64,000 nucleotides of DNA from an uncultured Dehalococcoidia bacterium (GTDB lineage Bacteria; Chloroflexota; Dehalococcoidia; Lucifugimonadales; UBA3495). The stretch is from the NCBI GenBank assembly GCA_964587795.1, contig CAZPMU010000004.1:15142-79141 (forward strand), written 5' to 3'. The notes beneath the pieces were generated by a model that did not search any database, had not been told where the DNA came from, and saw only the letters and a program-made list of their open reading frames with translations. Below, piece by piece: positions 14,729 through 54,241 of the stretch (positions are counted from its first letter, which is position 1; each line of letters begins with the position of its first letter). Position numbers and translations under genes: made by a program.

Positions 14729-15922
14729 ATGTTGCCCGGCGCGCTGGATGGAGTAAAAGTGCTGGACCTGAGCGAGGATATCGCCGGTTCGTTTTGCGCG
14801 CGCCTGCTGGCGGACTATGGCGCCGACGTGCTGAAGGTGGAACCACCCGGGGGCGCGGCCCTGCGGCGAATGGGGCCCTTTTTTCACGATGACCCGCATC
14901 CGGAGAAGAGCCTGTTCTTCCTGGCGCTCAACCTGAACAAGAAGGGAACGACCCTGAACCTGGAAACGGTTACGGGGCAGGCCATTCTGAAGCACCTGAT
15001 TCCGCAGGTGGACGTTGTCGTCGAGAGCTTCCGGCCAGGGCATTTGGCGTCACTAGGCCTGGGGTACGAAGAGCTGGAGGCGTTGAATCCTGCGCTGACG
15101 ATGACTTCCATCACCCCCTTTGGGCAGGATGGTCCCTACAGCCAGTACCGGGGCGAGGAGATCGTCAACTACGCCATGGGCATGATAATGAGCATCAGCG
15201 GGGTACAGGGACGGGAGCCGCTGAAGCACGGGGGCTTCCAGGCCCAGTACGAGGGGGGCCTGTTTGCCGCCGCCACCACGTCCATGGCCCTGTTTGGAAG
15301 CGAGTTTACCGGCATCGGCGAGCACATCGACGTTTCCATCACCGAGTGCATCGCCTCCACAATGATGGCCACCCAGACCATGTACCCCTTCATGGGTGGC
15401 ACCCAGGTGCGGCGGCGGGCCAGCGGCAGTATGTTCGGCCATCCCATGCCGTGCCAGGACGGGTGGATCATCGTTCAGACGGGCGGTGGGGCGTCGTGGG
15501 AAGACCTGGCCGAGTTCTTCCAGTGTCCTGAAATGCTGGAGGAGCGTTTTGCCGACCGGGCGCAGCGGGCAGTGAACGGCGAGGAACTGGACCGCATTGT
15601 CATCGAGTCCATTAAGGAAAGGAGCAAGTGGGAGCTGTTTCCCAAGGCGGCGGAATACCGCATGCTGTTCGGACTGGTTCAGACACCTTCGGAACTGGTG
15701 GACTGCCCTCAGCTGGAGTCGAGAAACTTCTTCCGCGAAATTGAGCATCCGGTGCTGGGCAAGGTGAAGGTGCCTGCCGAGTTGTTCAAACTGAGCGAGA
15801 CTCCCTACAGACCGGAGCGATCAGCGCCAACCCTGGGCCAGCACAACCGGGAGATTTACGTGGACGGCCTGGAGTATGACGACCAACAGTTTGCGAGGCT
15901 CAGGCAGTTGAACGTGATTTAG
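14729..15922 (+). CDS. Family III (CaiB/BaiF) CoA-transferase
   Basis: GVKVLDLSEDIAGSFCARLLADYGADVLKVEPPGG N-terminal signature. LGQHN near the C-terminus. Confidence 0.85.
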   Translation: MLPGALDGVKVLDLSEDIAGSFCARLLADYGADVLKVEPPGGAALRRMGPFFHDDPHPEKSLFFLALNLNKKGTTLNLETVTGQAILKHLIPQVDVVVESFRPGHLASLGLGYEELEALNPALTMTSITPFGQDGPYSQYRGEEIVNYAMGMIMSISGVQGREPLKHGGFQAQYEGGLFAAATTSMALFGSEFTGIGEHIDVSITECIASTMMATQTMYPFMGGTQVRRRASGSMFGHPMPCQDGWIIVQTGGGASWEDLAEFFQCPEMLEERFADRAQRAVNGEELDRIVIESIKERSKWELFPKAAEYRMLFGLVQTPSELVDCPQLESRNFFREIEHPVLGKVKVPAELFKLSETPYRPERSAPTLGQHNREIYVDGLEYDDQQFARLRQLNVI

Positions 15923-16006
15923 GCGGAGGACGGGACGAGTCTCTATCCGCATAACGCTGGGCCGGCTCAGCAGCCCTGAAAAAACAAGCAAGAGGTAACC
16001 ACCACA

Positions 16007-17362
16007 ATGCCCAGACTTCCCCTGGAAGGCATCCGAATCCTGGACTCGACCTACGTTTTCGCCTTGCCCTATGCCGGCGGTCACCTGGCTGACCTGGGAG
16101 CGGAGGTGATCAAGATTGAGGGACCCGGGCGGCCGGATGTTACCCGTACCGGAGGTTATGCCGGCTCCTTTCCTGAAAACCAGGCGGGCGAGGAATGGTG
16201 GAACAAACCGTCCACCTACAACCTGCTGAACCGGGGGAAGAAGTCGCTGGTCCTGGACATGGGCGACGAACGGGGTAGGGACCTGTTCCGGGAACTGGTG
16301 GCGGTCAGCGACGTGGTGATGGAGAACTTCACGCCCCGGGTGATGCGCCGCTGGGGGCTGGACTATCCCAACTTGCGGAAAATCAAGCCGGACATCATCC
16401 TGGTCTCCAACACGGGCTACGGGCACGGTGACGGGCCTTATTCCGGATACCCGGCCCAGGCAACCACCCAGGAAGGTACCCACGGGCACTGCTGGGTTAC
16501 GGGCTACCTGAACGGCGAACCGGCCAAGGCGGGGGCCTCTTTCGTGGACTTCTTATCCACCTGGAGCGCGATTTTTGCCCTGGGCGCGGCCCTACGCTAC
16601 CGCAACCGGACGGGCAAGGGGCAATGGATTGATATTGCCATGTACCAGGCGGGGGTGATGTTCCTCTCCGAGTACCTGATGGACGCCGCCATTAACGGCA
16701 GGGAGGGTGGCCGCATGGGCAACCGGCATCCCTACCGGGCTCCCCAGGGCTGTTATCCGGCGCTGGGCAAGGACCAGTGGGTAACCCTGTCGGTGGGCAG
16801 CGACGAGGAATGGCAGTCGCTGTGCCGGCTGATGGGCAAAGATGAACTGGCGACTGACGTCCGATTTGCCGATATATTGTCACGGCGCCGCAACCACGAC
16901 GAGGCGGACGAGATCATCGCTGAGTGGACCGCCGCCACGGACAAGTATGAACTGATGCACCTGATACAGGGAGCGGGCATTCCGTCGGGACCAGTCCTGA
17001 CGGGACGGGACATTCACTACGACCCGCACTACAGGCACCGGGGCTTCCTGGAACGGGTGGACTTCCCGGAAGAGCGGGAAGTGGGCAGCAGGTTCCTGAT
17101 GGGACGGCCCTACAAGTACAGTAACACACCAATGTCTATCAAAGGGCCAGGCCCCAAGTTCGGGCAGGACAATGAGAACTTGCTTAAGGAACTGCTGGCC
17201 CTGGACGAAGGCGCTTACCAGTCCCTGCTGGATGACGCCATCACCACGACCACGCCTACAAGTGGTGAACCGTCCCCCCAGATGGAACCCACTCGGGCCG
17301 TGGAGCTGGGTCTGCTGGCGGAGTACGACCCGGAATACCTGGAGAAGCTGGGGCTGGTCTAG
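16007..17362 (+). CDS. Family III (CaiB/BaiF) CoA-transferase
   Basis: GIRILDSTYVFALPYAGGHLADLGAEVIKIEGPG signature. Adjacent paralog of 14729..15922. Confidence 0.85.
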   Translation: MPRLPLEGIRILDSTYVFALPYAGGHLADLGAEVIKIEGPGRPDVTRTGGYAGSFPENQAGEEWWNKPSTYNLLNRGKKSLVLDMGDERGRDLFRELVAVSDVVMENFTPRVMRRWGLDYPNLRKIKPDIILVSNTGYGHGDGPYSGYPAQATTQEGTHGHCWVTGYLNGEPAKAGASFVDFLSTWSAIFALGAALRYRNRTGKGQWIDIAMYQAGVMFLSEYLMDAAINGREGGRMGNRHPYRAPQGCYPALGKDQWVTLSVGSDEEWQSLCRLMGKDELATDVRFADILSRRRNHDEADEIIAEWTAATDKYELMHLIQGAGIPSGPVLTGRDIHYDPHYRHRGFLERVDFPEEREVGSRFLMGRPYKYSNTPMSIKGPGPKFGQDNENLLKELLALDEGAYQSLLDDAITTTTPTSGEPSPQMEPTRAVELGLLAEYDPEYLEKLGLV

Positions 17363-17450
17363 ATTCGCTCCAGTCCCAGGACTGGGCGGCAAAGGGCCCC
17401 GGCCCCATCCTTGACACGGTAACCAGCCCTCTTTAAGCTGGATGAATGGA

Positions 17451-17522
17451 GGGCCTGTAGCTCAGTGGAAGAGCAACCGGCTCATAACCGGTAGGTCGCT
17501 GGTTCGAACCCAGCCGGGCCCA
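17451..17522 (+). tRNA. tRNA-Met (anticodon CAT, elongator type; lysidine-modified Ile2 not excluded); CCA not encoded
   Basis: Hand-folded cloverleaf: acceptor GGGCCTG/CGGGCCC, D stem GCTC/GAGC, anticodon stem ACCGG/CCGGT with loop CTCATAA, T arm GCTGG-TTCGAAC-CCAGC. Confidence 0.85.
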
Positions 17523-17532
17523 CTTTTGTCAT

Positions 17533-18076
17533 CCCCTCCCCTTGGGTTCCTCCCGCTTATCCTCTGTACGAGAGCTTGCGCTCCACTTAGATACCCCTGA
17601 CCTTTGGTTTATCTGGACCAACTGGTGGTCCACAGAGAACCGGCGCGTTAGCCAGCATCAGCAAACCGCCCCGAAGTTGTTCCCTTGGAACAAGCCTTCG
17701 GCCCGCTGGGTCTGGCGGATATAGCAGATGATTCTCTCCACGTCCTTCTCCTCCACACTGGGTACGGGCGCCACGTCTCCAAAGGGCCAGTGGAGCCTGG
17801 AACGCCCTGGGCAACGGCGTTGCGGATGCTGAAGTCGGAGTGGTGGCCGGGGTGATAAGCGCGATGGATCAAGGGCGGGCCAATGCTGGTGCCGACGGCC
17901 TCCAACCCGTGGCAGGCACAACAGTTGGTGTTGAGCAGGTCTTCTCCCTGTCGGGCCGTTACAGCTACATCCAGGACTCCCACAGGTTGTTGTTGTTCCA
18001 CGGCCACCGCTAATGGAGCCCTCACCGGGGCGACAGATTTACGTCCGCAGTCGGAAACGAACACCAAGGCAACCAT
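17533..18076. repeat. Direct repeat R1 (about 540 bp, roughly 85% identical to R2 at 29401..29941)
   Basis: Manual alignment to 29401..29941. Both copies contain the hairpin TGGACCA-N5-TGGTCCA and the cytochrome c coding sequence. Similarity ends at ggcaaccat. Confidence 0.85.
17658..18076 (-). pseudogene. Cytochrome c remnant (5'-truncated, 1-nt frameshift)
   Basis: The N-part (MVALVFVSDCG...NCCACHG...AQGVPG) and C-part (HWPFGDVAPVPSVEEKDVERIICYIRQTQRAEGLF) are in different frames. Relative to the intact copy, one G is missing near 17797-17801. The signal peptide N-region is missing. Confidence 0.75.
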
Positions 18077-18373
18077 GCCTCAAAGCCCGCTCCTGACCAA
18101 CTATCCCAATCCCCACGCAGCCGATTAATCCCCACAGCCAGGGGGCACCTTCGCCCAACCCCCGCGGAACGCCTTCCAGAATCCAGATATTCTTGCAAAA
18201 GAGAACCGAAAGTGAAGAATTCTGAGTTTTGCTCGTTCACCTTTGTTATCCAGGAAGAATTGCTTTTACACTGGTTTGTAAAACTCTCGGGGCCCGCCGG
18301 GCGAAAGTGACGCCAACCTGGCAGGCGGAAGTTGTTGATGCTCGAGTAGCAGCCCCTTAGCAGGAAAGATGGA

Positions 18374-21300
18374 ATGATGGAAAGTGACACCAACCTGGAA
18401 GCATCCGGCCCGACTCCCGAAAGACTGCCCTCTAAAGTGGCCGGTGGGTGTCGGAATATGAGAGGGCCCGGGGAACCGATCGCCGTAGTGGGAATGGCAT
18501 GTAAGTTCCCCGGCGCGCCGGATATTGCGGCCCTGTGGCGGCTTTTGGCGGCGGGAGGGAACGCCGTCATCGAAGGCGAACCCGGTTCAGGAGTTGGGCG
18601 TATTGGCCAGTTCTATCCCAAGTCCGCTGCCCAGTACACAGCTTGCAGGTTTGCCGCACTGGTAGATGACATTGACCTTTTCGATGCAGAGTTCTTCCGC
18701 ATTTCCCCGGTGGAGGCCCAGTTGCTGGACCCCCAGCAGAGGATGACCCTTGAGATCTGCTGGCAGGCCCTTGAGGATGCGGGTATAGACCCGGAGAGTC
18801 TGCGGAACACCCGCAGCGGCGTATATATCGGCGTCACCAACAACGACTATCGGGGGATGAACCTTGCCTCCGCCAGCCAGATAAGTGAGCCCGCCGCCAG
18901 CCTCTATGCCGTCAGCGGCACATCCTTCAACACCGTTGCCGGCCGGGTGGCGTACGTGCTTGGCCTGGAAGGTCCCACCATTGCCCTGGATACCGCCTGC
19001 TCCTCTTCGCTGGTTGCCGTGCACCAGGCCGTTTCGGCTCTGCGGGAGGGCGAGGCGGATCTGATGCTTGTAGGGGGGACCCAGGCTATTTTCAACGGCC
19101 GCCTGACCCAACTGCGGGCCCAGGCGGGCATGCTTTCCCCGCAGGGCCAGTGCAAGGCCTTCGACTCCTCGGCCAACGGCTTCGTCCGGGGCGAGGGCTG
19201 CGGCATCGTCGTGCTGAAACGGTTGAGCGACGCCGAAGCGGACGGCGACCCCATCTGGGGCGTTATCCTTGGCTCCGCCATCAACCAGGACGGCGCCAGC
19301 GCCGGGCTTACCGTACCGAGCGCTCCGGCCCAAGTAAAGGTTATCCAGGACGCCCTGCTCCAGGCTGGGGTTGCGCCGGCGGAAGTGGATTACCTGGAGG
19401 CCCACGGCACGGGAACAGAGGTGGGCGACCCTATTGAGCTGAGCTCCGCCGCCGAGGCCTACGGCAACGGACGAAAACCGGACCGACCCCTGCTGGTGGG
19501 TTCGATCAAGACCAACATGGGCCACCTGGAGCCGACGGCGGGTATAGCCGGATTTATGAAGGCGGTACTGTCGCTGCGCCAGCGCGTAATACCCAAGCAC
19601 CTGCACTTTGACAACCCAAACCCGAGGGTGGACTGGGCGAACTTGCCGGTGGTGATTACCGGCGAAAAGACCGATTGGCCTTCCACCGGCAATCGACCGC
19701 CCAGGGCCGGTGTCAGTTCCTATGGCTGGTCTGGCACCAACGCTCACGTCATTGTCGAGGGCTACGGTCAACCCGACAATCCGTTATCGGGAAGCGACGA
19801 AGTTTCGTTGCCTACCGGCAGCGTGGTAACCATTGGCTGGAGCGTTAATGAGGACGAAGAGCCCCCATCTGAGAGCGAGAGGACTTTCGAAGGGCGGCCG
19901 GCCCGCTTTTTGCCCGTCTCGGGCAAGTCGGCCGACGCCCTGCGGGACACGGCCAATGCCTACTTGACCTGGCTCGACGAGCATGAGGCTGACGCGGAGC
20001 TTGCCGACCTGGTCTGGTCAGCCAGCGTTGCTCGAAGCCATTTCGACTTTAGGGACGGCGTTGTATTTCGCGACGGCGTCACTCTTCGAAAGGGGCTGGA
20101 AGCAATGGCGGGGAACTTGGACCCTGCTTTCCTCCCCAGGGCAGCCCGAGTTGCCTTTGTCTATACCGGCCAGGGAAACCAGTGGGTGGGCATGGGCGAG
20201 GCGCTTTACCGGCAGGAACCCGTTTTTCGAGAAATAATGGACCGCTGCGACAGTTTCATTCGACAAGAGCGGGGAGTATCGCTGCTTGACGTGATGTTCG
20301 GACGTACAGGCGCTACCGGCGACCTGGACGAGCCCCGGTGGACGCAGCCTTCCATTTATGCCCTGGAGTGCGCCCTGACAGCGTTGTGGCGCAGTTTGGG
20401 CATTGAGCCCGTCGCGGTGCTGGGCCACAGCCTGGGGGAGATTGCCGCGGCCCAAGCCGCCGGCGTGTTCACCCTGGAAGATGGAATGAAGTTTGCCTCT
20501 GCCCGCGGCCGACTGATGGGAGACCTGCCCGGAGCCGGGGCCATGGCTGCCGTCTTTGCTCCGGTGGCCCGGGTGACCGAGGCGGTAGAAAACTGGAAGA
20601 AGGAACACCCCGGATCTGACCTTTGCATCGGCGTGGACAACGGCGCGCACCAGGTTATCAGCGGGCCGCAGGAAGAGGTGCATGCCCTGGCCGACCGGCT
20701 GGAGTACGAGGGCGTCAACCTGAGACGGTTACGGCCCAGTCCTGCCTACCACAGCCCGTTAGTGGAACCGGCGCTGGACGACTTGCAGGCCGTACTCGAA
20801 GACATGGGAGTCTCCACTCCTTCCGTTACGCTGGTCAGCAACGTGACGGGTAAGCCGGTAGGAACCGACTTTGCGATGGACGGCGCTTACTGGCGCCGGC
20901 ACGCCCGCCAACCGGTGCAATTCCGGCAATGCGTGGAGACTTTGGCCACCGACCTGGGTGTTGATGCAGTCATTGAACTGGGCCCCCACGCCATCCTCGG
21001 TCCCCTGGTGTCTTTGAATTGGCCCACCGGCGCCGGTGTTGCCGATACCCCGCTGATACTGCAGAGTCTGCTGCGGCCCTCTTTCGACGGCTCAGAGCCC
21101 GAAAGGGCGGACGCCTTCGTCGGTGCCGTGGCCGGAGCGTACCGGGCGGCTCTGCCCGTGGACTTCAGGGGCCTGTTCGCCGGGGAAGTCCGGCGGCGGA
21201 TTAAAATTCCCGGCTACCCATTCCAGCGGCGGCGTTTCTGGACTCCGACTCCGCAGCGTCGGGCCTCGGAAGACTCGCACCCCTTGCTGGGCGTGAAGCA

Positions 21301-24300
21301 CGAGTCACCCCGGGGCGAGGTGATGTTCGAGACCGAGATGCTTCCCTCCGACCCAGTCTGGCTGGCCGACCACCGGGTTTACGGCCGGGTGGTAATGCCC
21401 GGCGCCCTGTTCGGCGCCATGGCCGCCGCAGCATCGGAGATTGATGGGTCCGGTGGTCTGGTAATTGAGGAGTTTCAACTACTTAACCCCTTGGTGTACC
21501 CCGAGTACGATGAGACGGACGACTCGCGAGAACCGGGGAAACGGGTCCAGTTGATCGTTGACGACGCCAGTGGTAATCAGATACGCCATTTTGAAATTTT
21601 CAGCAAAGGCGAAGGGGAAGAAGACTGGGTCCAGCATGCCGAGGGTCAGTTTTCCCGACGCGACACGCGGGCTGCATCCATTGAATGGGTTGACATCGAT
21701 GCCTTGAAGGATGGACTTTCCCCCCAGGACCTGCCTTCCTATTACCGCAGCAAGGCGGCCGCGGGCATAGACCTGGGCCCGGCCTTCCGCACCCTGGAAG
21801 CCCTGTGGGGCGGAGATGGCGAGGCCGTGGCTGAATTGGCGCTGCAGTTCCGCGGCGACGGGAACGATTCCGCCCTCCATCCCCTCTTGTTGGACGGGTG
21901 TCTCCAGGTCTTCTCCGCAGCCCGTTACCAGACCGTTGTGGGGGGCGACGCTACCTACCTTCCCTTCGCCTGGGAACGGCTCTGGCTAAACGGCCCCCTG
22001 CCTGGCAACTTTGTCTGCCACGCCCGCCTGCGGGATTCCGTGAACGACCAGGACGCTGAAGGGCAAATTTCACAGATTCCGGAAACCCTGAAAGGTGACC
22101 TTTGTTTTTACTCTCCTGACGGCCTGGCGCTAGGCGGCTTGACCGGCTTCGCCGTGAAGCGATCCTCCCGTTCCTCCCTGCTGTCTGCCACGGAAGAACT
22201 GGAGGACCTGCTCTACGAGGTGGTCTGGCGTGAGAGGCCGTTGCTCGACCGGTTGCAGCCCGCCGACGCTCTGGCATCGCCGTCCACGGTGGCGGCATCC
22301 ACCGGCACTTTCGGTGAATACCTGGCCCGCGAGGGAGTGAACCTGGAGGAGAGGTCTGCCCTGCTGGACGACCTGAAGCTTTTGTCCCGCGCTTATGCGT
22401 ATGCATCCCTGGACCAGCTGGGTTGGGAACGACGATCGGGTACGGTAGTCGACCCGGAGTTGTTGCAGGAACATCTGGGCATACTCCCCGAGCATACAGT
22501 CCTTTTCGACAGAATGCTGCGTCTGCTGGTTGACGCCGGAGTGCTGGAGCGGGATGGCGGAAGATACAGGGTCAGAATCGGGACTGGAGAACCCTTGCCC
22601 GACGAAGATTTGGCCTACCCTGATGACCTTAACGACCGACTGACTGCCCTCCACCCCCATGGCGCCGTCGAACTGGGTCTGCTGCGGAGAAGCGGAGGAG
22701 CGCTGGCCCAGGTGCTGCAAGGAGACGTGAACCCCCTCTCCATTCTGTTCCCCAGAGAGGGGCCAGGGATAGCCGATTATTACTTCACCGCTCCGGCATC
22801 CCGCGCAACGAACCAGTTGTTGGGAGAAGCCGTAGCGGCTGCCGTGGCCAACTGGCCGGAAGAGCGTCCTCTGCGGATTCTGGAGGTGGGCGCGGGAACC
22901 GGCTCCGGCACTTCGGTGGTTTTGCCCCAACTGCGGCCTGGGAATTTCACGTATATGTTCACCGACATTTCGGCGGGGTTCTTTGCCGAGGCCGAGAACA
23001 GATTCGCCGATTCGGGCGCCCCGCTGGAATACCGCTCCCTGGACATAGAGCGGAATCCTGGCGACCAGGGCTTCGACCTGCATGCTTATGACCTGGTCAT
23101 TGCCGTGAACGTGTTGCATGCCACCCGCGACCTGGGCGAGACGCTGACCAATTGCCGAGAGTTGCTGGCGCCTTCCGGGAAGCTGATAGCGGTGGAAAAC
23201 CTGCGAGGCCGCGGCTGGCAGGACATGGTATTTGGGCAACTGGACGGCTGGTGGAGGTTCTCTGACCAGTATCGTCCCGACCACGCACTCGCCTCACCTG
23301 AAGTATGGCGGCGGGCCCTGGCCGATGCCGGATACGTGGAATCCGCCGTCTTGGGCGGAGAACCGGGGACTGATGAGCGGCCCCTGGGTTCGGGCGTCGT
23401 ACTGGCCGAAGGGCCCCGTGAAGTTGGGTGGGAGGCCGGGGTCTGGGTAGTGGCCGGCGGCGAGCGCGCATTCTCGCAAGATCTGGCGTCAGCCCTGGCG
23501 CAGCAAAACCAGACCGTGGTTCTGGCTTCTCCCTTGTCGGAAATTGCAAATTCCGAAGCGTCGAAGGGCATTCGGCGTGAAACGGTGGAACCGGACGACA
23601 GGAACTCCTGGCTCTGCTTGCTGAACCAGTTGCCGACGGCGCTGCCCTTGAGGGGCGTGGTGCATTGCTTCGCCACTGAAGGGCACGGGCTTCAAGCCTC
23701 CACCGAAGAAATGGCGGATGACGTGCGCCGGATCGGACAGTCCGCTTTGACTCTTGCCCAGGCTCTGCAGGATGCGGATATCTCGCTGGATAGGGGACTA
23801 TGGTTCGTAACGCGCGGGGCGCAGGCTCTGGAGCGGGACTACATGCGCGAGTGGGCTGGGCAACTGGCAGGGTCCTCCTTGTGGGGTTTCGGCAAGGTTG
23901 TGGCGCGGGAAGCGGCACATCTCCGCCCGCGAATGCTGGATTTGGACCCAGCAGGGCCGGACAATTTGGAAAGTCTCGTCAACGAAATGATGTTTCCCGA
24001 CCCGGAAACCCAGGTGGCGTTCCGGGACGGAAGGCGTCTGGCGGCGCGCCTGGTCAGGGCAGGGTCGGGTCGAGCACGGATAGATTTGCCGGACGACTCG
24101 GGCTGGCGCCTGATGCCCGGCGCCGGAGGAGGCCTGGAAAGCCTGCACGCCGAACCCGCTCCCAGCCGTCCCCTGGAACCGGGGCAGGTCCGGGTGGCAG
24201 TGGAAGCAGTGGGCGTGAACTTCCTTGACGTGCTCCTCAGCATGGGAGTCGTGACGTCCGCCGAACCGCTGCTGGGCGAGGAATTTTGCGGACGAATTAC

Positions 24301-27300
24301 GGAAACTGCGCCGGATGTGACGAAGGTAGCAGTGGGCGATAGAGTGGTGGGGCTGGGCTTCGGCACCTTTGGACCCGAGATTGTAACTACGGCGGAACTG
24401 GTCGCGCCCGCACCCGAAGGAATGCATGCGGCGGCGCTAACAACCATACCATCAGCCTTCGTCAGCGCCGGGCTGAGCTTCGAGATGGCCGGGTTAAAGG
24501 CTGGCGACCGGGTACTTATCCACACCGCATCGGGCGGCGTGGGACTGGCGGCCGTGCAGTTGGCACAAAGCGTGGGAGCCGAAGTTTTCGCCACCGCTAG
24601 CCAGCCCAAGCAAGCCTACCTCCGGGCCCTGGGCGTAGAGCATGTTTTCGACAGCCGGACAATCGACTTTGGCCAGCAGGTCCGGGAAGCAATAGGCGGC
24701 GCCGGCATAAACATGGTATTGAACAGCCTAACGGGCCCCGGGTTCATCGAGGCCAGCCTTTCCTGCCTGGCGGACGGCGGCAGTTTTGTTGAGATGGGAC
24801 GCCGGGACATCTGGAGCAGCGAAGAAATGGCAGCATCGCGGCCCGATGTCGCCTATTCCATTCTCGAGTTGGACTACCTGAAGAAGAACGAACCGTCCCG
24901 TCCGGGCCGAATGCTCCGCTCCGTCATGGAAGGAATTTCGGGGGGCACTCTGGAGCCGCTGGCCCACACCCGCTGGCCCATCGCCGAGGCCGGGGCCGCC
25001 ATGGAGTTCATGCGGTCGGCCCGTCACATAGGCAAGAATGTCATGGTAATGCCGCGGATGGCTGGTGGTCAGTTACGCCACGACCGCTCCTACCTGGTAA
25101 CCGGCGGTCTCGGCGGCATAGGCACGGTGGTTGCCCGCTGGCTGGCCGAGCGAGGCGCCGGGGTAATTGTCTTGAACGGACGTCGGCCCCCGGACCCGGA
25201 AGCGCAGGAAGTGATTGATTCCCTTCGGGCGCAGGGGACAGATGTCCGGGTGGAACTGGCCGACATGACCGACTTGGCGGCCATAGATAGCATGCTTGCC
25301 AGGATCGACGCCAACATGCCGCCCCTGGCCGGAGTCATTCACAGCGTGGGGGTGCTGTCCGACGGCTCCCTGGGAAACCAGACCTGGGAGCGTTTCGAGC
25401 GGGTCCTGTGGCCCAAGGTACTGGGAGCGTGGCATCTGCACCGGGCCACGTTAGACCGCGACCTGGACTTGTTTGTCCTGTTCTCCAGCATTACCGGCGT
25501 GGTGGGCAATTCGGGACAGGGCAACCACGCGGCGGCCAATACTTTCCTGGACCAGTTGGCCGCTTACCGCCGCTCCCTGGGCCTGCCGGGCCAGAGCATC
25601 GCCTGGGGAGCCTGGTCCGGGCTGGGCGAGGCCGAAGAACAGCGGCAGCGAATCGAACGTCAGCTCGAGGCGGCGGGCACCGGATGGCTCAGCCCGCAAC
25701 AGGGGCTGAAGGCCCTCGAGGAACTGGTACACCAGGACATGACCTTCGGGATGGTGGCGTCGGTGGACTGGCCGACCCTGGCGGAAAACTTTGAGGAGCC
25801 TCCCACTTTCCTGGTCGAGTTGCTGCCCGGCGAGGAAAATGGCGACCAAACCCTTGCCGGCGACACGGCAGACTTCTTGTCCCAGCTAAAGTCCGCGCCG
25901 CAGGAAGCCTGGGAGCAGGTACTGGTTCCCTTCCTGCAAAGAGAATTGCAGGCAGTGCTTCGGATGCCGACGGCCCCAGCGCCCAATGTGGGCTTTTTCG
26001 AATTGGGTATGGACTCTTTGATGTCGGTGGAACTCCGCAACCGGCTGAACCGTACCCTGGCGGGCGAGTACACGGTCTCCAACACCGCCGTGTTCGACTA
26101 TCCCAACATCTCTGCCCTGGCCGGTCACCTGGGCGCTGAACTCGGGCCGGTCCTGGGGTCTGCCAACGTCGTGGCGGACATTCCGAGTCTGCGTAGGCCG
26201 GTAACCCACGTCTCTACCGATGAAGATGCCATAGCCATAGTGGGGATGGCTTGCCGATTCCCCGGTGCGTCGAACCTGGAGTCTTTCTGGGACCTGCTTG
26301 AAAGAGGAAAAGACGCCATTACTGACGGCCGCCCCGCCGGGGGACCCTGGGAGGGTGTGGCCGGCGACCCGGCAGCACAGGAAGACATTTTCCGGCGGGG
26401 TGGGTTCATTGAAGACCTGGACCGGTTCGACAACCGATTTTTCCGCGTTTCTCCTATAGAGGCGCGGCTGATGGACCCCCAGCAGCGGCTGCTACTGGAA
26501 ACAACCTGGCACGCGCTGGAAGACGCCGGACTTGACCCCGAAAGGCTCAGGGGAAGCCGCACTGGCGTCTATGCCGGCATTGGCACCAGCGAGTACCGGG
26601 AAGTAATCTCCGCGAGCGGGCAGGAGGACCTGTATTTCGGGACCAGCGCCAGCCTGACCGCGGGAAAAATTGCCTTTGTGCTGGGGCTTGAAGGACCGGC
26701 CATGCCGGTGGACATGGCCTGCGCCTCCTCCCTGGCGGCGGTTCACCAGGCGGTTGCCGCCCTACGAGGGGGAGAGGTGGATTTGGCTCTGACCGGAGCG
26801 GTCAACACCACCCTGTCGTTGCCCATTGCCCGCTTCCACCGCGAAATGGGATTGCTGTCCGCCTCGGGGCGCTGCAATGCCTTCGACGCCACTGCCGACG
26901 GGTTCGTTCGCAGCGAGGGCTGCGGGGTGCTGGTCCTGAAGCGGCTGAGCCAGGCGGAAGCCGACGGCGACCGAATCTGGGGCCTGGTGAAGGGCACGGC
27001 AATCAATCAAAGCGGGACCAGCGCAGCCATGCCGGTGCCCAACGGGCCAGCCCAGGAGCGAGCAATGGAAGAAGCCCTCGCCAAGGCCGGTGTGGCTCCC
27101 GCTGAAGTGGACTACGTAGAGGCCCACGGCACCGGTACTGAACTGGGTGACTCCATTGAACTTCGGGCCCTGGCTTCGGTTTACGGCAAGGGGAGAGAAG
27201 CGGAACGTCCCCTGCTGCTGGGTTCGGTCAAGACCAACATCGGTCATACCGAGTGGTCATCGGGAATGGCCAGCATCATCAAGGCCGTAATGGCAATGCA

Positions 27301-28744
27301 AAAGGGTGTGATCCCCGCACACCTGCACTTCAACGCACCCAACCCCAACTTCGATTGGCGACAATTGCCGGTCCAGATTACTTCGGAGCAGATTGCCTGG
27401 CCTTTGGCAGCCGAACGGCCTCCCCGTTCGGCGGTTAACTCATTCGGCATGTCTGGGACAAATGCGCATATAGTAATGGAGGGATACCGGCATCCCGGTG
27501 ATGGCCCCGCTTCCGACCGCGACACGTCGTGGCCGTCGGGCGGGCCGCAGGCTATGCAGATTGCCTTGCACCAAAATAGTGACGACGTGCAGCAATTGGA
27601 CGAGACTCAGCAGGCTCGGACCGCCAGGGTTTTGCCCCTGTCCGGCAAGTCTCCCGAGGCGCTGCGATATCTGGCAGAGGCATACCTGTCCTGGCTGACC
27701 AAGGAAGACGTTCAATACGCGCTGGAAAACGACGCAGGGAACTTCCTTGCCGATATGGCGTGGACGGCAGGTTCGGGGCGCAGCCATTTCTCGTGTCGAG
27801 CGGGCGTAGTATTCACCGATGCCGCTGACCTGCAGGCCTCGCTGGAAAATGTGGCGCAGTCGGCTATGGCATCTGGTGAACGGGCATTTGGAACTACACC
27901 AGGAATCGCCGTTGTGTACGCCTCCTCGGGCGGCCTTTGGGAAGGGGTGGGAGAGGAACTTTACCGTACCGAGCCGGTTTTCCGGGCTGTCCTGGAACGT
28001 TGCGACGAGTGGGTAAGGGCAGAGAGGGGGCAGTCCCTGCTGGAGGTCATGTTCGGCAAGGCGAGAACTTCGGAGAGTCTGTCGCATCCGACGTGGGCAA
28101 ATGCCGCAGGCTACGCGCTGGAAACCGCACTTACTAGCCTGTGGGAGAGCGCGGGCATCCGCCCGATGGCGGTCCTGGGCCAAGGAATTGGAGAGGTCGC
28201 TGCGGCCCATACCGCCGGTATCGTAAGCCTGGAAGACGGGTTGCGGCTGGCAATGGCATTGTCTGGTCCGGAAGCGGCGCTCCCTATAGTGGAGACCAGG
28301 TCTCCCTCGCTAACCATGGTCAGCAGCGTCATGGGTCGCGCCGTGCAGCCCTCGGACACTCTGGACAACGGTTACTGGCGGCGCTTGACGGGAGACCAGC
28401 CGGACCTTCAGACCTGCCTGCAAACACTGGCGGCGAGCTCAGTCAACGTGCTGCTGACACTGGGATCGAGAGGTAGGAAGACTGCGCCGTCGGTAAGTGC
28501 ATTCAACGAATGCGCGGCCACGGATGCGAACCTGTCAATCATATACGGGTTGCTCCGTCCCGAAGGGGATTCTAAAGGAGATGCCAAAGGATTCCTGGAG
28601 GCGGTTGCAGCGGCCTACGAGTCGGGTTCTACGGTCGCCTTCCAGGGGATCTTTGCAGGGGAAGAGAGGCGCCGCATTTCGATTCCCAATTATCCTTTTC
28701 AACGCCGGTCGTTCTGGGTGCGGCGACGGAATTGCCGGGCGTGA
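18374..28744 (+). CDS. Type I polyketide synthase, 3456 aa: KS-AT-DH-cMT-ER-KR-ACP-KS-vestigial AT
   Basis: Single uninterrupted ORF with AGGAAAG upstream of the ATG. Domain motifs are listed in the sub-features. Confidence 0.95.
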   Translation: MMESDTNLEASGPTPERLPSKVAGGCRNMRGPGEPIAVVGMACKFPGAPDIAALWRLLAAGGNAVIEGEPGSGVGRIGQFYPKSAAQYTACRFAALVDDIDLFDAEFFRISPVEAQLLDPQQRMTLEICWQALEDAGIDPESLRNTRSGVYIGVTNNDYRGMNLASASQISEPAASLYAVSGTSFNTVAGRVAYVLGLEGPTIALDTACSSSLVAVHQAVSALREGEADLMLVGGTQAIFNGRLTQLRAQAGMLSPQGQCKAFDSSANGFVRGEGCGIVVLKRLSDAEADGDPIWGVILGSAINQDGASAGLTVPSAPAQVKVIQDALLQAGVAPAEVDYLEAHGTGTEVGDPIELSSAAEAYGNGRKPDRPLLVGSIKTNMGHLEPTAGIAGFMKAVLSLRQRVIPKHLHFDNPNPRVDWANLPVVITGEKTDWPSTGNRPPRAGVSSYGWSGTNAHVIVEGYGQPDNPLSGSDEVSLPTGSVVTIGWSVNEDEEPPSESERTFEGRPARFLPVSGKSADALRDTANAYLTWLDEHEADAELADLVWSASVARSHFDFRDGVVFRDGVTLRKGLEAMAGNLDPAFLPRAARVAFVYTGQGNQWVGMGEALYRQEPVFREIMDRCDSFIRQERGVSLLDVMFGRTGATGDLDEPRWTQPSIYALECALTALWRSLGIEPVAVLGHSLGEIAAAQAAGVFTLEDGMKFASARGRLMGDLPGAGAMAAVFAPVARVTEAVENWKKEHPGSDLCIGVDNGAHQVISGPQEEVHALADRLEYEGVNLRRLRPSPAYHSPLVEPALDDLQAVLEDMGVSTPSVTLVSNVTGKPVGTDFAMDGAYWRRHARQPVQFRQCVETLATDLGVDAVIELGPHAILGPLVSLNWPTGAGVADTPLILQSLLRPSFDGSEPERADAFVGAVAGAYRAALPVDFRGLFAGEVRRRIKIPGYPFQRRRFWTPTPQRRASEDSHPLLGVKHESPRGEVMFETEMLPSDPVWLADHRVYGRVVMPGALFGAMAAAASEIDGSGGLVIEEFQLLNPLVYPEYDETDDSREPGKRVQLIVDDASGNQIRHFEIFSKGEGEEDWVQHAEGQFSRRDTRAASIEWVDIDALKDGLSPQDLPSYYRSKAAAGIDLGPAFRTLEALWGGDGEAVAELALQFRGDGNDSALHPLLLDGCLQVFSAARYQTVVGGDATYLPFAWERLWLNGPLPGNFVCHARLRDSVNDQDAEGQISQIPETLKGDLCFYSPDGLALGGLTGFAVKRSSRSSLLSATEELEDLLYEVVWRERPLLDRLQPADALASPSTVAASTGTFGEYLAREGVNLEERSALLDDLKLLSRAYAYASLDQLGWERRSGTVVDPELLQEHLGILPEHTVLFDRMLRLLVDAGVLERDGGRYRVRIGTGEPLPDEDLAYPDDLNDRLTALHPHGAVELGLLRRSGGALAQVLQGDVNPLSILFPREGPGIADYYFTAPASRATNQLLGEAVAAAVANWPEERPLRILEVGAGTGSGTSVVLPQLRPGNFTYMFTDISAGFFAEAENRFADSGAPLEYRSLDIERNPGDQGFDLHAYDLVIAVNVLHATRDLGETLTNCRELLAPSGKLIAVENLRGRGWQDMVFGQLDGWWRFSDQYRPDHALASPEVWRRALADAGYVESAVLGGEPGTDERPLGSGVVLAEGPREVGWEAGVWVVAGGERAFSQDLASALAQQNQTVVLASPLSEIANSEASKGIRRETVEPDDRNSWLCLLNQLPTALPLRGVVHCFATEGHGLQASTEEMADDVRRIGQSALTLAQALQDADISLDRGLWFVTRGAQALERDYMREWAGQLAGSSLWGFGKVVAREAAHLRPRMLDLDPAGPDNLESLVNEMMFPDPETQVAFRDGRRLAARLVRAGSGRARIDLPDDSGWRLMPGAGGGLESLHAEPAPSRPLEPGQVRVAVEAVGVNFLDVLLSMGVVTSAEPLLGEEFCGRITETAPDVTKVAVGDRVVGLGFGTFGPEIVTTAELVAPAPEGMHAAALTTIPSAFVSAGLSFEMAGLKAGDRVLIHTASGGVGLAAVQLAQSVGAEVFATASQPKQAYLRALGVEHVFDSRTIDFGQQVREAIGGAGINMVLNSLTGPGFIEASLSCLADGGSFVEMGRRDIWSSEEMAASRPDVAYSILELDYLKKNEPSRPGRMLRSVMEGISGGTLEPLAHTRWPIAEAGAAMEFMRSARHIGKNVMVMPRMAGGQLRHDRSYLVTGGLGGIGTVVARWLAERGAGVIVLNGRRPPDPEAQEVIDSLRAQGTDVRVELADMTDLAAIDSMLARIDANMPPLAGVIHSVGVLSDGSLGNQTWERFERVLWPKVLGAWHLHRATLDRDLDLFVLFSSITGVVGNSGQGNHAAANTFLDQLAAYRRSLGLPGQSIAWGAWSGLGEAEEQRQRIERQLEAAGTGWLSPQQGLKALEELVHQDMTFGMVASVDWPTLAENFEEPPTFLVELLPGEENGDQTLAGDTADFLSQLKSAPQEAWEQVLVPFLQRELQAVLRMPTAPAPNVGFFELGMDSLMSVELRNRLNRTLAGEYTVSNTAVFDYPNISALAGHLGAELGPVLGSANVVADIPSLRRPVTHVSTDEDAIAIVGMACRFPGASNLESFWDLLERGKDAITDGRPAGGPWEGVAGDPAAQEDIFRRGGFIEDLDRFDNRFFRVSPIEARLMDPQQRLLLETTWHALEDAGLDPERLRGSRTGVYAGIGTSEYREVISASGQEDLYFGTSASLTAGKIAFVLGLEGPAMPVDMACASSLAAVHQAVAALRGGEVDLALTGAVNTTLSLPIARFHREMGLLSASGRCNAFDATADGFVRSEGCGVLVLKRLSQAEADGDRIWGLVKGTAINQSGTSAAMPVPNGPAQERAMEEALAKAGVAPAEVDYVEAHGTGTELGDSIELRALASVYGKGREAERPLLLGSVKTNIGHTEWSSGMASIIKAVMAMQKGVIPAHLHFNAPNPNFDWRQLPVQITSEQIAWPLAAERPPRSAVNSFGMSGTNAHIVMEGYRHPGDGPASDRDTSWPSGGPQAMQIALHQNSDDVQQLDETQQARTARVLPLSGKSPEALRYLAEAYLSWLTKEDVQYALENDAGNFLADMAWTAGSGRSHFSCRAGVVFTDAADLQASLENVAQSAMASGERAFGTTPGIAVVYASSGGLWEGVGEELYRTEPVFRAVLERCDEWVRAERGQSLLEVMFGKARTSESLSHPTWANAAGYALETALTSLWESAGIRPMAVLGQGIGEVAAAHTAGIVSLEDGLRLAMALSGPEAALPIVETRSPSLTMVSSVMGRAVQPSDTLDNGYWRRLTGDQPDLQTCLQTLAASSVNVLLTLGSRGRKTAPSVSAFNECAATDANLSIIYGLLRPEGDSKGDAKGFLEAVAAAYESGSTVAFQGIFAGEERRRISIPNYPFQRRSFWVRRRNCRA
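18473..19765 (+). other. PKS domain KS1 (approximate bounds)
   Basis: VGMACKFPG, DTACSSSLVAVHQA (Cys209), EAHGTGTEVGDPIE, NMGHLEPTAG. Confidence 0.9.
20147..21010 (+). other. PKS domain AT1 (approximate bounds)
   Basis: FVYTGQGNQWVGMG and GHSLGE (Ser686). PAYHS occupies the HAFH/YASH position. The post-AT linker PGYPFQRRRFW ends near 21243. Confidence 0.85.
21277..22165 (+). other. PKS domain DH (approximate bounds)
   Basis: HPLLG start. HxxxGxxxxP appears as HRVYGRVVMP (His1000). DxxxQ appears as LLDGCLQ. Confidence 0.8.
22660..23355 (+). other. PKS domain C-methyltransferase (approximate bounds)
   Basis: SAM motif I ILEVGAGTGSGT (about aa 1500). Downstream VIAVNVLHAT and LLAPSGKL motifs. 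Confidence 0.8.
24098..25055 (+). other. PKS domain ER (approximate bounds)
   Basis: VRVAVEAVGVNFLDV and the NADPH motif LIHTASGGVGLAAVQLAQ. Confidence 0.8.
25085..25640 (+). other. PKS domain KR (catalytic Tyr replaced by His)
   Basis: YLVTGGLGGIG, WPKVLGAWHLH (Lys), FSSITGV (Ser). GQGNHAAAN stands where GQxNYAAAN is expected; the His2385 codon cac is at 25526..25528. Confidence 0.8.
25921..26131 (+). other. PKS domain ACP
   Basis: FELGMDSLMSVELRNRL. Phosphopantetheine Ser2548 codon is at 26015..26017. Confidence 0.85.
26224..27488 (+). other. PKS domain KS2 (approximate bounds)
   Basis: VGMACRFPG, DMACASSLAAVHQA (Cys2783), EAHGTGTELGDSIE, NIGHTEWSSG. The Cys-His-His triad is intact. Confidence 0.9.
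27900..28744 (+). other. PKS vestigial AT-like region (AT0) plus post-AT linker; the ORF ends here
   Basis: GQGIG replaces GHSxG (Gly3271 at the Ser position). About 90 aa, including the HAFH/YASH region, are missing relative to AT1. The ORF ends ...PNYPFQRRSFWVRRRNCRA. Confidence 0.75.
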
Positions 28745-29400
28745 TTGCGTAAGGTTCGTTAGCACGTTCTGCCAAGCGAGTATTGGGCAATGGTCCCTCG
28801 GGCCCAAGGACCTGGGCGGGCCCCTGTGTCACCTGTCGAGAAGAGCGCAAGGGCTTCCCAGTCCCCGAGTATTTCTTTGGCTCGCGGCTGAGGCTCTTTT
28901 CCTTGAGGGAATTTCCCAACGGAAGGGTCGGCACATGGGATCAGGATACTTGGCAAAAGGTAAGAGATGAAACCTGGAAGAAGCTGAACCAGCAGCCCAG
29001 CGTTGCCCTTAGGGACTAGCAACAGAAGCGGCGGCGGCCCCCAAGGTAAAGGAACTTCTTGAGCCGATGGATTTTCTGATTCCCTGGCAAGGGTCGGAAG
29101 ACCGGACTTGGTCTCAAGATTACCGTGCCGAGCGGGGCATCCGTCCTTTTTCCCTGTCGGCGATGTTCAGGGTTCACATTGTCCTACTGTGCTTCAACCT
29201 GAGCGTCCCAGCCATGGGGGATCCCCGCCTTAGCGGGGCAGGCTCTCTTATATGAAGCGGAGTCGGCACGGCGCTTTGCCGGGTTGCGGTTGACGGAACC
29301 CCTTCCCGATGGGAGCGCCATATTGCACATTCGCCACCCGCTGGAACGACATGAAACGGGCCCGGGCCTGTCTTGGGAAATCAGGTCCCACCGCTGCCAT

Positions 29401-29941
29401 GCCCTTCCTTTGGGCTTCTCCCGCTACTCCCCGGTGCGCGAGCCGGAGCTTTTTTGACAAACCCGTACCTTTGGTCCATCTGGACCCACTGGTGGTCCAC
29501 AGAGAGCCGGCGCATTAACCGGCATCAGCAAACTGTCCCGAAGTCGTCCCCTTCGAACAAGCCTTCGGCGCGCTGGGTCTGGCGGATATAGCAGATGATT
29601 TTCTCCACCTCCTGCTCCTCCACGCTGGGTACGGGCGCCATGTCTCCAAAGGGCCAGTGGTGCTGGGGAACGCCCTGGGCTACGGCGCTGCGGAAGCTGA
29701 AGTCGGGGTGGTGCCCGGGGTGATAAACGCGATGTATCAAGGGCGGGCCAAGGCTGGTGCCAACGGCGCCGGCGCCATGGCACGCGGAACAGTTGTCGTT
29801 GAACAGGTCTTCGCCCTGTCGAGCCGTTTCAGCTACATCCAGGACTGCCGCGGGTGGTTGTTCCACGCCCGCCGCTGAGGGAGCCCTCACCGGGGCGGCA
29901 GATTCGCTTCCGCAGCCGGCAAAGAACAACAGGGCAACCAT
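29401..29941. repeat. Direct repeat R2 (partner of R1)
   Basis: Aligns with 17533..18076. Carries the 3' flank and most of the intact cytochrome c gene. Confidence 0.85.
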
Positions 29942-30022
29942 CAGGACCAAGCCCAAGGCCAAAAGCGTAACCGCCGATACCGGACTCCCCCCTTTCAGGC
30001 CATCCTCCAGCGCGTCCCTCAT
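29525..30022 (-). CDS. Class I c-type cytochrome, lipoprotein
   Basis: ATG at 30022 overlaps the BVMO stop (ATGA). Lipobox LFFAGC, heme motif CSACHG, distal Met in FGDMAPVP. The 226-aa ORF-track version overlaps the BVMO gene and was rejected. Confidence 0.8.
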   Translation of the reverse strand: MRDALEDGLKGGSPVSAVTLLALGLVLMVALLFFAGCGSESAAPVRAPSAAGVEQPPAAVLDVAETARQGEDLFNDNCSACHGAGAVGTSLGPPLIHRVYHPGHHPDFSFRSAVAQGVPQHHWPFGDMAPVPSVEEQEVEKIICYIRQTQRAEGLFEGDDFGTVC

Positions 30023-31668
30023 TCCAGCAGGAAACCCTCGTAGCCGTTGGCGGCGACATCGGCGCGCTTGGCCCGCATTACAGGGGCCGTGTCGGGGCTG
30101 GTGAGCAGGGCGCGGGCCTTGCCGGGGATGTTGGCCCCCACGTACCAGGAGTTGGCCTGGGAGCGGAGAATCCTGGAGCCTTCCTCGTTGACGTGGTTGA
30201 CCCATTCGTCCTCGGCCTCAAGGGTTGGCGAGATGCGGACGAATTCGTTCTCACGGACGTAACGGATACACTCGGTTACCCATTCAACCAGGGGTTCGGC
30301 GGCCCGAACAAAGTTTCCCACGGAAGCAGAGTTAATGGTGAACAGATTGGGGAAACCGTTGCTCTGGATACCAAGATAAGTGCGGGGGCCGTTGGCATGC
30401 TTTTCAGTCAACAGTTGTCCGCCGATTCCCCGGACGTTGATGCGGTTCAGGGAGCCGGTTACGGCGTCGTAGCCTGTGGCGAAGATGATTACGTCCAGGT
30501 CGTAATGCCCGCCTGCGGTTTGAAGGCCGGTGGGGGTGATACGCTGGATGGGCGCTTTTCGCACGTCCACCAGCAGAACATTGTCCCGGTTGTAAACTTC
30601 GTAGTAGCCACTCTCGCAGGGAAGGCGCTTTGAGCCGAACATGTGGTCCCTGGGCACCAGCATTTCGGCCACTTCGGGGTCGTGGACACGCTCCCTGATC
30701 TTGTTGCGGACGAATTCGGCGTAGTCCTCATTGGCCTCTCCCGGAAGCATCACGTCGTAGAAATTTGACAGCCACTTGGCAAATCCCGGCTCCTGCCAGA
30801 GACGCTCGTACTGTTCCTGGCGTTCTTCGTCCGAAACGTCCATGGCGGAACGGGGGTCAAAGAGGTGCATGAAAGACCCGGCAGTCTCGTTGCAGCGGCG
30901 GAAAATTTCGGGATAATTGTCCCTGATTTCCTGCATCATCTCGTCGGTAATGGGACGGTTGCGCAGGGGAGCGCAGAAGTTGGGCGTGCGCTGAAAGACG
31001 GTAAGATGGCCTACCTCTTTGGCTATCTCGGTAATCAGCTGGACCGCAGTGGCGCCGGTTCCAATGACACCCACTCGCTTGCCGGCCAGGTCCATACCTT
31101 CCTTCGGCCAGCGCCCGGTGTGGCACCACCGGCCCTGGTAAGTTTCCAGGCCCTCGAAGTCGGGGATGTAGTGGGCGGACAAGAGACCTACGGCAGTGAC
31201 CAGGAAAGGAGCGCGGGCCTGGTGGCCGTCGGCAATGGTAACCAGCCAGGAATTGCAGTCTTCCTCAAAGGTGCAGTCCACAACCCGGGAGTTGAAACGG
31301 ATGTGGCGCTTCAGGTCGAATTTGTCCGCCACGTAATTCAGATATCGTTCATTCTCGGGCTGGCCGGAGTAAAGCTCCTTCCAGTCCCACTCCTGCAGCA
31401 GTTCCTGGGAAAAGGAGTAGCCGTAGGTGTAGCTTTCGGAGTCGAAGCGGGCGCCAGGGTAGCGGTTCCAGTACCAGGTGCCCCCCACACCGTCGCCATC
31501 TTCAAACACACGTACGGACAGTCCGATATTGCGGAGGCAATAGGTCTGGTAAAGACCCGTAACGCCGGCGCCGATGACTATGGCGTCGAACTGCTCTACG
31601 TCGTCACCCAAACCGTAACTGCCGATGGCGGTCTGTTCTTTAGCTTCTACCATCTTTTTCTCTCTCAA
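30019..31668 (-). CDS. Baeyer-Villiger (type I flavin) monooxygenase
   Basis: FAD motif VIGAGVTGL, BVMO fingerprint YQGRWCHTGRWP (FxGxxxHxxxWP), NADPH motif VIGTGATAVQ. Confidence 0.9.
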   Translation of the reverse strand: MREKKMVEAKEQTAIGSYGLGDDVEQFDAIVIGAGVTGLYQTYCLRNIGLSVRVFEDGDGVGGTWYWNRYPGARFDSESYTYGYSFSQELLQEWDWKELYSGQPENERYLNYVADKFDLKRHIRFNSRVVDCTFEEDCNSWLVTIADGHQARAPFLVTAVGLLSAHYIPDFEGLETYQGRWCHTGRWPKEGMDLAGKRVGVIGTGATAVQLITEIAKEVGHLTVFQRTPNFCAPLRNRPITDEMMQEIRDNYPEIFRRCNETAGSFMHLFDPRSAMDVSDEERQEQYERLWQEPGFAKWLSNFYDVMLPGEANEDYAEFVRNKIRERVHDPEVAEMLVPRDHMFGSKRLPCESGYYEVYNRDNVLLVDVRKAPIQRITPTGLQTAGGHYDLDVIIFATGYDAVTGSLNRINVRGIGGQLLTEKHANGPRTYLGIQSNGFPNLFTINSASVGNFVRAAEPLVEWVTECIRYVRENEFVRISPTLEAEDEWVNHVNEEGSRILRSQANSWYVGANIPGKARALLTSPDTAPVMRAKRADVAANGYEGFLLE

Positions 31669-31916: not shown

Positions 31917-31939
31917 GGCAGACACACAAGTCTGCCCCT
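31917..31939 (+). repeat. GC-rich palindromic intergenic element, family B
   Basis: ggcagacacacaagtctgcccct, with stem GGCAGAC/GTCTGCC. Confidence 0.55.
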
Positions 31940-34024: not shown

Positions 34025-34034
34025 GCGCAATTAT

Positions 34035-54237: not shown

Positions 54238-54241
54238 ACCT

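Follow-up and report, generated by a model that had tools for sequence, protein, structure and literature searches.

A giant polyketide synthase gene between two diverged copies of a tRNA-Met/cytochrome c region in a sponge-associated SAR202 bacterium, readable as an old insertion-duplication scar

In the genome of an uncultured sponge-associated SAR202 bacterium (Dehalococcoidia; contig CAZPMU010000004.1 of assembly GCA_964587795.1), a giant type I polyketide synthase (PKS) gene is bracketed by two copies, each about 0.55 kb long, of the region that joins tRNA-Met to a cytochrome c (cyt c) gene. The analysis covered one 64-kb stretch of this genome (64,000 nucleotides, hereafter the window, to which all positions refer unless another locus is named), and related loci and contigs are labelled L001, L002 and so on. 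With somewhat better than even confidence, the arrangement can be read as an old insertion-duplication scar with one homologous and one illegitimate joint, left either by Campbell-type integration of a circle or by homology-facilitated illegitimate recombination (HFIR). This is a known kind of rearrangement in a clean natural example; no mobile element of a new type and no new biochemical system is revealed by it. The segment between the copies measures 11.3 kb and consists of 297 nt, a single PKS open reading frame (ORF) of 3456 aa and about 640 nt; the features of the locus are as follows.

16007..17362 (+): CoA-transferase family III gene (CoAT2; Pfam), native left-hand context and synteny anchor.
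17451..17523 (+): tRNA-Met (CAT) (ARAGORN; Rfam tRNA, 72.7 bits), conserved left border of the hypervariable region.
17514..18076 (-): left repeat copy, made up of the tRNA 3' end, a 134-nt non-coding flank (17524-17657) and a cyt c pseudogene (17658-18076).
18077..18373 (+): 5' part of the insert, 297 nt upstream of the PKS, with a lower GC content of 0.54.
18374..28744 (+): type I PKS, 3456 aa, ORF intact (Pfam, motif search).
28745..29381 (+): 3' part of the insert, about 640 nt without a detectable gene.
29382..29941 (-): right repeat copy, made up of a decamer resembling the tRNA 3' end, a 133-nt flank and cyt c from its stop codon to codon 28.
29525..30022 (-): intact lipoprotein cyt c, 165 aa (Pfam PF00034/PF13442).
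30019..31668 (-): Baeyer-Villiger/FMO-type flavin monooxygenase gene (BVMO; Pfam), native right-hand context.

The direct repeat is 83.1–83.9% identical over 552–562 nt by blastn (E about 3e-168), and in a global alignment of the two copies 466 of 556 positions are identical (83.8%) with three gap events, so that the end-to-end repeat of roughly 85% identity, first estimated by eye in an earlier sequence-only reading of this DNA, is real and far beyond chance. Self-comparison of positions 16000-32000 gave three co-linear ungapped blocks, 17595-17796/29462-29663 with 90% identity, 17799-17994/29667-29862 with 85% and 17989-18076/29854-29941 with 84%; by part, the 130-nt non-coding flank is 76.9% identical and the coding part 86.5% (global alignment), and similarity is at background level in the 100 nt outside either repeat end. 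The refined ends are 17514/17516-18076 for the left copy and 29382/29384-29941 for the right copy. The left copy does not begin about 10 nt after tRNA-Met, as had been thought; its end falls within the last 8–10 nt or so of the tRNA itself (17451-17523). The corresponding start of the right copy, CAGGTCCCAC (29382-29391), matches the tRNA end, CCGGGCCCAC (17514-17523), at 8 of 10 nt, which is a short match, and no further tRNA similarity above shuffled controls was found to the left of 29382-29391. The idea that a decayed copy of tRNA-Met precedes the right repeat was rejected, as 29271-29394 aligned with the tRNA region no better than shuffles did in either global or local alignment. The longest identical tract between the present-day repeats is 30 nt, and because there is no longer one, loss of the PKS by recombination between the repeats now appears unlikely.

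The two copies differ in their state of preservation. In the right copy, cyt c is a 165-aa ORF with a PF00034 match and the lipobox LFFAGC, and its ATG overlaps the BVMO stop codon as ATGA; gene calls on independent contigs also show this 4-nt cyt c/BVMO overlap, which bears out the earlier view of an intact gene joined to the BVMO. The left copy is a pseudogene. Codons 1-27 are missing and the lipobox is spoiled (FVSDC), in line with the reported absence of the signal-peptide N-region; the reading frame is broken by a 1-nt deletion at about 17797-17798 (block offset 11867 to 11868), within the interval 17797-17801 given before, and a 3-nt in-frame indel separates the copies near 17985-17990. 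The pairing of cyt c with BVMO is conserved in many SAR202 relatives, and the overlap by ATGA is seen in this genome; the pair is unusual in that an exported haem protein stands beside a cytoplasmic flavoenzyme.

On its outer side the left copy adjoins the tRNA, and its truncation faces inward; the right copy runs on into cyt c codons 1-27 and the BVMO. The inner sides (from 18077 onward and up to 29381) match nothing in relatives. A duplicated host segment of 556–563 nt thus flanks the insert, with native sequence on both outer sides, and this is the topology of a Campbell-type integration.

The unoccupied site expected under such an integration was sought by synteny, with a CoAT2 search that retrieved 80 related loci from SAR202/Dehalococcoidia metagenome-assembled genomes (MAGs), many of them from sponges, the best being 92% identical at the amino acid level. 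In L001 and L005, whose CoAT2 proteins are 92% identical to that of the window, the gene order is CoAT1, CoAT2, tRNA-Met, cyt c (minus), BVMO (minus), permease and, further on, a radical SAM gene, with only about 140 nt from the tRNA to the cyt c stop codon. The predicted empty, single-copy site of tRNA-Met, cyt c and BVMO is therefore present in relatives, and the flanks of both window copies can be aligned to the tRNA-proximal flank of L001/L005. The BVMO is 93% aa identical in L001, L002, L005 and L097 and conserved beside cyt c in relatives. No relative carries two cyt c copies in tandem without an insert. An adjacent cytochrome c pair in L097/L098 was examined as a candidate for the same duplication without the PKS and discarded, the second gene being a 25%-identical paralogue without DNA similarity. 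This second c-type cytochrome (128 aa, 25% identical) lies directly downstream of cyt c in L097 (10686-11072), L098 (1087-1242) and L012 (14583-14951), and it is absent from the window.

The comparison also brought out a point absent from the earlier reading. tRNA-Met follows CoAT2 in nearly all relatives scanned, blastn matches of relatives end at 17523-17529, and the 151 ORFs found 3' of tRNA-Met in 58 loci fall into 122 clusters. Because the content downstream differs so widely across these 58 loci, the 3' end of tRNA-Met is the fixed border of a hypervariable hotspot. Its contents, of which 106 ORF representatives match 101 Pfam families, include insertion sequence (IS) transposases, restriction-modification, DndB, Schlafen, Mrr, AbiEii-like ATPases and leucine-rich repeat (LRR) proteins. 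For instance, the tRNA is followed by a luciferase-like monooxygenase in L002 and L008, a Schlafen/AlbA_2 protein in L012, DndB plus an IS in L013, an LRR protein in L004 and an Eco57I-type methylase in L016. A different Sup-like PKS (the Sup group is defined below), 57–59% aa identical and in opposite orientation, occupies the same hotspot in L011 (7668-13187) and L015 (13647-20711), where it is preceded by a thiamine pyrophosphate (TPP)-dependent enzyme.

For dating, both window copies and five orthologues were projected onto the reading frame of the right copy. It was found that the copies are each other's closest relatives, with 86.5% nucleotide identity over codons 28–166 as against 75–80% to the nearest outgroups, L097/L098; at 36 sites the left copy equals the right copy and differs from the state shared by L097 and L098. 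When substitutions were polarised with these two outgroups, 28 left-derived changes fell on the three codon positions as 12/11/5 and 16 right-derived changes as 1/4/11, and distant outgroups yielded the same picture. Between the copies, synonymous divergence (dS) is 0.22–0.24 and the ratio of nonsynonymous to synonymous divergence (omega) is 0.45–0.59, as compared with an omega of 0.10–0.14 for orthologue pairs. This pattern indicates that the left copy has probably been drifting neutrally since the event while the right copy remained under purifying selection. Since the copies are sisters and the left one appears neutral, their divergence of about 15% would measure age and not a foreign source; it had earlier been put down to an old event or to an incoming copy from a relative, and of these the data favour the first. 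The two copies would have been nearly identical at the event, and for this reason donor and recipient probably belonged to the same lineage. A left copy from a different lineage, on account of the motifs GLEAVG and LFQG shared with P0122/P0124, is ruled out by the 36 sites at which left and right agree against L097/L098; these motifs are ancestral states. Judged by the repeat divergence, the insertion falls at about one third of the distance back to the split from the nearest sequenced sister lineage.

The inserted gene encodes the domains KS-AT-DH-cMT-ER-KR-ACP-KS-AT° (Pfam), with the motif DPQQ in both KS domains (aa 119 and 2701; motif search). The C-terminal AT-like domain (window 28175-28190, aa ~3269) reads GQGIG in place of GHSLG at the GHSxG active site and has no catalytic serine; since no close homologue has this serine either, the terminal KS-AT° didomain is a conserved family trait. 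In an Rfam search, the second KS gave a minus-strand match to the antisense small RNA ASpks (window 27158-27232; 30 bits against a gathering score of 52), which is most probably due to conservation of the KS coding sequence rather than to an RNA gene. By domain content and DPQQ motifs, the PKS resembles Sup ("sponge symbiont ubiquitous"; PMC4245539, PMC3908369), a group of type I PKSs from sponge microbiomes. It does not resemble Swf, whose domain order is KS-AT-DH-ER-KR-ACP and which has no DPQQ (PMC3908369, PMC4245539); the KS of SwfA is without this motif (PMC4245539). SAR202 sponge symbionts have been reported to carry such PKS clusters (PMC6306507). The window's gene shares with Sup PKSs the fatty acid synthase (FAS)-like single module with a C-methyltransferase, the DPQQ of the KS and the hosts, namely sponge-associated Chloroflexota and other sponge symbionts; it differs by the extra C-terminal KS-AT° didomain, and the likeness is one of domains and motifs.

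A protein-database search with the C-terminal 857 aa of the PKS found homologues in many sponge-symbiont phyla. The closest relative, P0001, is 90% aa identical, and its contig stops at the PKS stop codon. Homologues in L090 and L091 are 82–89% aa identical and lie in other contexts: in L090 the order is permease, PKS, stand-alone acyl carrier protein (ACP), phosphopantetheinyl transferase (PPTase) and hydrolase, the last three of which are absent here, and in L091, which belongs to the same sister MAG as L003 and L097, it is PKS, EEP, FUR and ZnuA. A metagenome scan returned only three distant loci, none with a tRNA or cyt c context. Against L091 the PKS shows a nonsynonymous divergence (dN) of 0.107, a dS of 0.64 and an omega of 0.17. 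Because this dS matches the 0.46–0.73 of flanking core genes between the window and the MAG of L091, the age of the PKS in the clade equals that of the core genome, and the gene was moved or exchanged inside the lineage rather than brought in from a distant donor. Comparison of the insert with its flanks, proposed at the outset as a check, gave a native profile: GC at third codon positions (GC3) is 0.72 in the PKS and 0.68–0.82 in host genes, the codon-usage distance lies within the host range, and the tetranucleotide correlation is 0.964 against 0.968–0.984 for other 11-kb chunks. The deviating composition of a genomic island was accordingly not seen. Of the earlier description of the PKS as an acquired single-gene cargo, the single-gene insertion remains, the acquisition being one within the lineage. 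In addition, the 10.4-kb ORF is intact with an omega of 0.17 while the 0.42-kb pseudogene gained a frameshift, which shows that the PKS has been maintained by selection for a long time.

The ends of the insert hold nothing that points to a mobile element. Neither the 297-nt nor the ~640-nt end shows coding periodicity by codon-position GC; the small insert ORFs have no Pfam match at E<=1, and the ends no Rfam family. No remnants of ACP, PPTase, hydrolase, EEP or integrase genes were found in 18077-18373 or 28745-29394 by tblastn, Pfam, codon-position GC and Rfam, and the ends resemble neither the flanks of the PKS homologues L090, L091 and L094 nor any of the 80 related loci. Terminal inverted or direct repeats are likewise absent from the insert ends, the best inverted match being below the shuffle mean. 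Pfam detected no transposase in the insert, and Pfam together with a motif search confirmed the initial statement that it holds neither integrase nor transposase. With no transposase, no terminal inverted repeats and a duplication of about 560 bp as against 2–15 bp, the insert does not behave as a transposon or IS; as its only ORF with an identity is the PKS, it also has no tyrosine or serine recombinase such as a genomic island would carry. The element is not mobile, and no recombinase is involved today.

The favoured course of events would start from the locus as seen in relatives, with CoAT2, tRNA-Met, a flank of about 140 nt, cyt c and BVMO. An 11.3-kb segment with only the Sup-like PKS would have come to sit directly after the tRNA, through a homologous exchange inside the 0.55-kb tRNA-flank/cyt c segment or to its left, and an illegitimate joint at 18076|18077, the one clearly illegitimate joint. 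The product would be a chimera, in which the empty allele contributes the tRNA, the flank and cyt c up to codon 28, and the occupied allele contributes the PKS, the 640 nt, the tRNA-end decamer, the flank, the complete cyt c and the BVMO. In the simplest route, a circle with the PKS and 0.55 kb of hitch-hiked host DNA would have entered by a single crossover of the Campbell type; HFIR of linear DNA from an empty-site strain gives the same product. Afterwards drift would have acted on the left, pseudogene copy and selection would have kept both the right copy and the PKS, with the repeats diverging to 84% identity. The Campbell circle, linear HFIR and replicative template switching lead to the same end product. 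The Campbell-type integration first proposed is accordingly supported in its topology and its empty site, and its circular intermediate cannot be told apart from linear HFIR or a template switch.

Both routes have known counterparts. Campbell-type integration duplicates the homologous segment, as in lambda-dgal/dbio lysogeny and suicide-plasmid insertion-duplication. The window agrees with these in an insert lying between direct copies of a host segment, one truncated inward and one complete, in the existence of an empty site and in needing no transposase; it differs in that no phage genes, plasmid genes or circular form are seen, the event is ancient (84%) with an inferred intermediate, and on its outer side the homologous segment ends at the 3' end of the tRNA. 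HFIR has been described for the uptake of linear DNA in Acinetobacter and Streptococcus pneumoniae; natural competence is not known for SAR202. One homologous anchor plus one illegitimate joint, the lack of mobile-element enzymes and strains with different hotspot contents all fit HFIR, which however usually replaces or deletes recipient DNA and leaves no 0.55-kb duplication.

Several points weigh against an insertion-duplication of this kind. Among the fetched contigs there was no circular form, no donor configuration and no occupied allele without the left copy; since no circle, donor or precursor allele turned up, the route is read from the end product. The end of a random fragment would rarely coincide with the 3' end of a tRNA, so the extra assumption is needed that the PKS segment already lay at the hotspot border in the donor. 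The non-coding flank shows 23% raw divergence, as against about 15–20% predicted from the coding part, and these figures leave room for a small initial difference between the copies. Furthermore, a second PKS copy or an emptied source locus outside the 64-kb window would lie beyond the data.

The rival that survives best, though it is still unlikely, is replicative template switching of the kind described as microhomology-mediated break-induced replication or fork stalling and template switching (MMBIR/FoSTeS-like), which would need one step and no second allele. A stalled or broken replication end at cyt c codon 28 would have switched to a PKS locus elsewhere on the same chromosome, copied 11.3 kb, and returned at the tRNA end to copy the 0.55 kb again. 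The near identity of the copies at the event agrees with this, as do the lack of a recombinase and of terminal repeats, and the divergence of the PKS from that of the sister MAG, being equal to core-genome divergence, fits a source in the same genome; the locus L023, described below, offers an analogue in its tight single-ORF cargo with a stop codon abutting the repeat. On the other hand, no source copy is seen in the 64-kb window, the PKS of the sister MAG stands in the other context of PKS, EEP, FUR and ZnuA, microhomology scoring would require the source sequence, and the process is poorly documented in bacteria at such a scale.

It is rather improbable that the insert is what is left of an integrase-bearing island at the tRNA-Met 3' end, with the decamer 29382-29391 as attR, in which aberrant excision (lambda-dgal-like) or a later deletion removed the integrase end and made the 0.55-kb duplication. 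Such an island would account for the right copy opening with an 8/10 match to the last 10 nt of the tRNA before homology ends, and for a site directly 3' of a tRNA at a hotspot for accessory and defence genes. The position, the very fast turnover of content and the short tRNA-end repeat at the far side are indeed those of tRNA-adjacent islands. Here, however, there is no integrase, the composition is native and not foreign, the cargo is a single gene, the 8/10 match is short, and a 0.55-kb repeat reaching into the neighbouring gene takes the place of a 15–60-nt att core. The insert holds no integrase or integrase remnant; no integrase family recurs among the 106 hotspot ORFs in the Pfam counts, and the tyrosine-recombinase box-II motif had no match in the window or in about 100 related loci, the regular expression used being a heuristic only.

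A two-step history, in which a 0.55-kb tandem duplication came first and the PKS later inserted exactly at the duplication junction, is very unlikely. This is the segmental duplication followed by insertion that had been offered before as an alternative; it fits the product, and tandem segmental duplications are present in related genomes (e.g., L021 and L025), but two independent events would have to share one junction, and no relative among the loci has the duplicate without the insert, the second cytochrome of L097, L098 and L012 being the 25%-identical paralogue.

The chance that the repeat joined contigs that are not adjacent in the cell, as an assembly or binning artefact, is negligible: several short-read contigs (L083, L086-L088) do stop within a repeat or at its edge, yet each repeat is fully spanned in different runs, and copies at 84% identity are too different to collapse. 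L085, from an independent Logan/ENA assembly, equals window 8946-25532 at 99.99% and covers CoAT2, the tRNA, the left copy and the 5' two thirds of the PKS, while L081 (25510-33140) and L082 (25510-31449) cover the 3' third of the PKS, the right copy, cyt c and BVMO at 99.99–100%; L099, a 98.3%-identical strain variant from another sample, carries the right junction too. Contigs from other runs thus cross each repeat with unique sequence on both sides, and because these independent assemblies reproduce both junctions, assembly chimerism, a concern voiced from the start, is excluded. The independent short-read contigs over the PKS all break at the same 23-nt overlap, window 25510-25532 (the ends of L081, L082 and L085), where a repeated k-mer or a dip in coverage is possible.

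A second instance of the architecture was found in L023, a complete Dehalococcoidia chromosome. At 8848-10193, a 211-bp direct repeat of 99% identity brackets 924 nt with a single ORF of 291 aa; the repeat consists of the ribosome-binding site and the first 64 codons of CoAT2, the left copy being truncated and the right copy starting the intact gene. The insert lies 1.4 kb from the tRNA, and its empty site was verified in L017, L018, L019 and L024. This suggests that the same architecture arose independently and recently in a relative, and that the mode recurs in these genomes. The 291-aa ORF has a weak DUF5655 match and, by eye, a PD-(D/E)xK-like motif; its family has at least 8000 database matches, is uncharacterised and often stands in defence-island-like neighbourhoods, a context that is uninformative on mechanism. 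A broader proposal, that the PKS unit and L023 both reflect a recurrent, recombinase-free transfer of single genes between SAR202 sponge-symbiont strains, is doubtful. In it, a gene would be looped out, or acquired by uptake, along with a few hundred bp of adjacent core DNA; it would then re-insert by homology at hotspots, and the long target duplications would be created anew each time; if this were true, Sup-type PKS genes could spread in symbiont populations without mobile-element machinery.

Read as an insertion-duplication, the locus would be a case in which recombination alone has fixed a biosynthetic gene as large as 10.4 kb at a hotspot beside a tRNA, and the scar would contain its own clock, as the pseudogene copy dates the event. 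Selection has kept the PKS intact though it is without the usual neighbouring ACP and PPTase genes. For genome mining of sponge symbionts the case calls for caution, in that a repeat-flanked gene beside a tRNA need not be foreign.

Some further observations concern the rest of the window. At 33948-34946, a plus-strand ORF of 327 aa (33948-34931) has no Pfam match. Here the minus-strand alpha/beta-hydrolase ORF 34035-34946 is probably the true gene, because an Abhydrolase gene separates the permease from the radical SAM gene in relatives (weak tblastn). Adjacent pairs of paralogous segments occur at 36931-38714 (67% over 735 nt) and 41024-42806 (70% over 839 nt), which look like tandem gene duplicates. 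Finally, positions 54162-54415 (+) hold a tight cluster of three tRNA genes, Ala-CGC, Arg-CCT and Trp-CCA.

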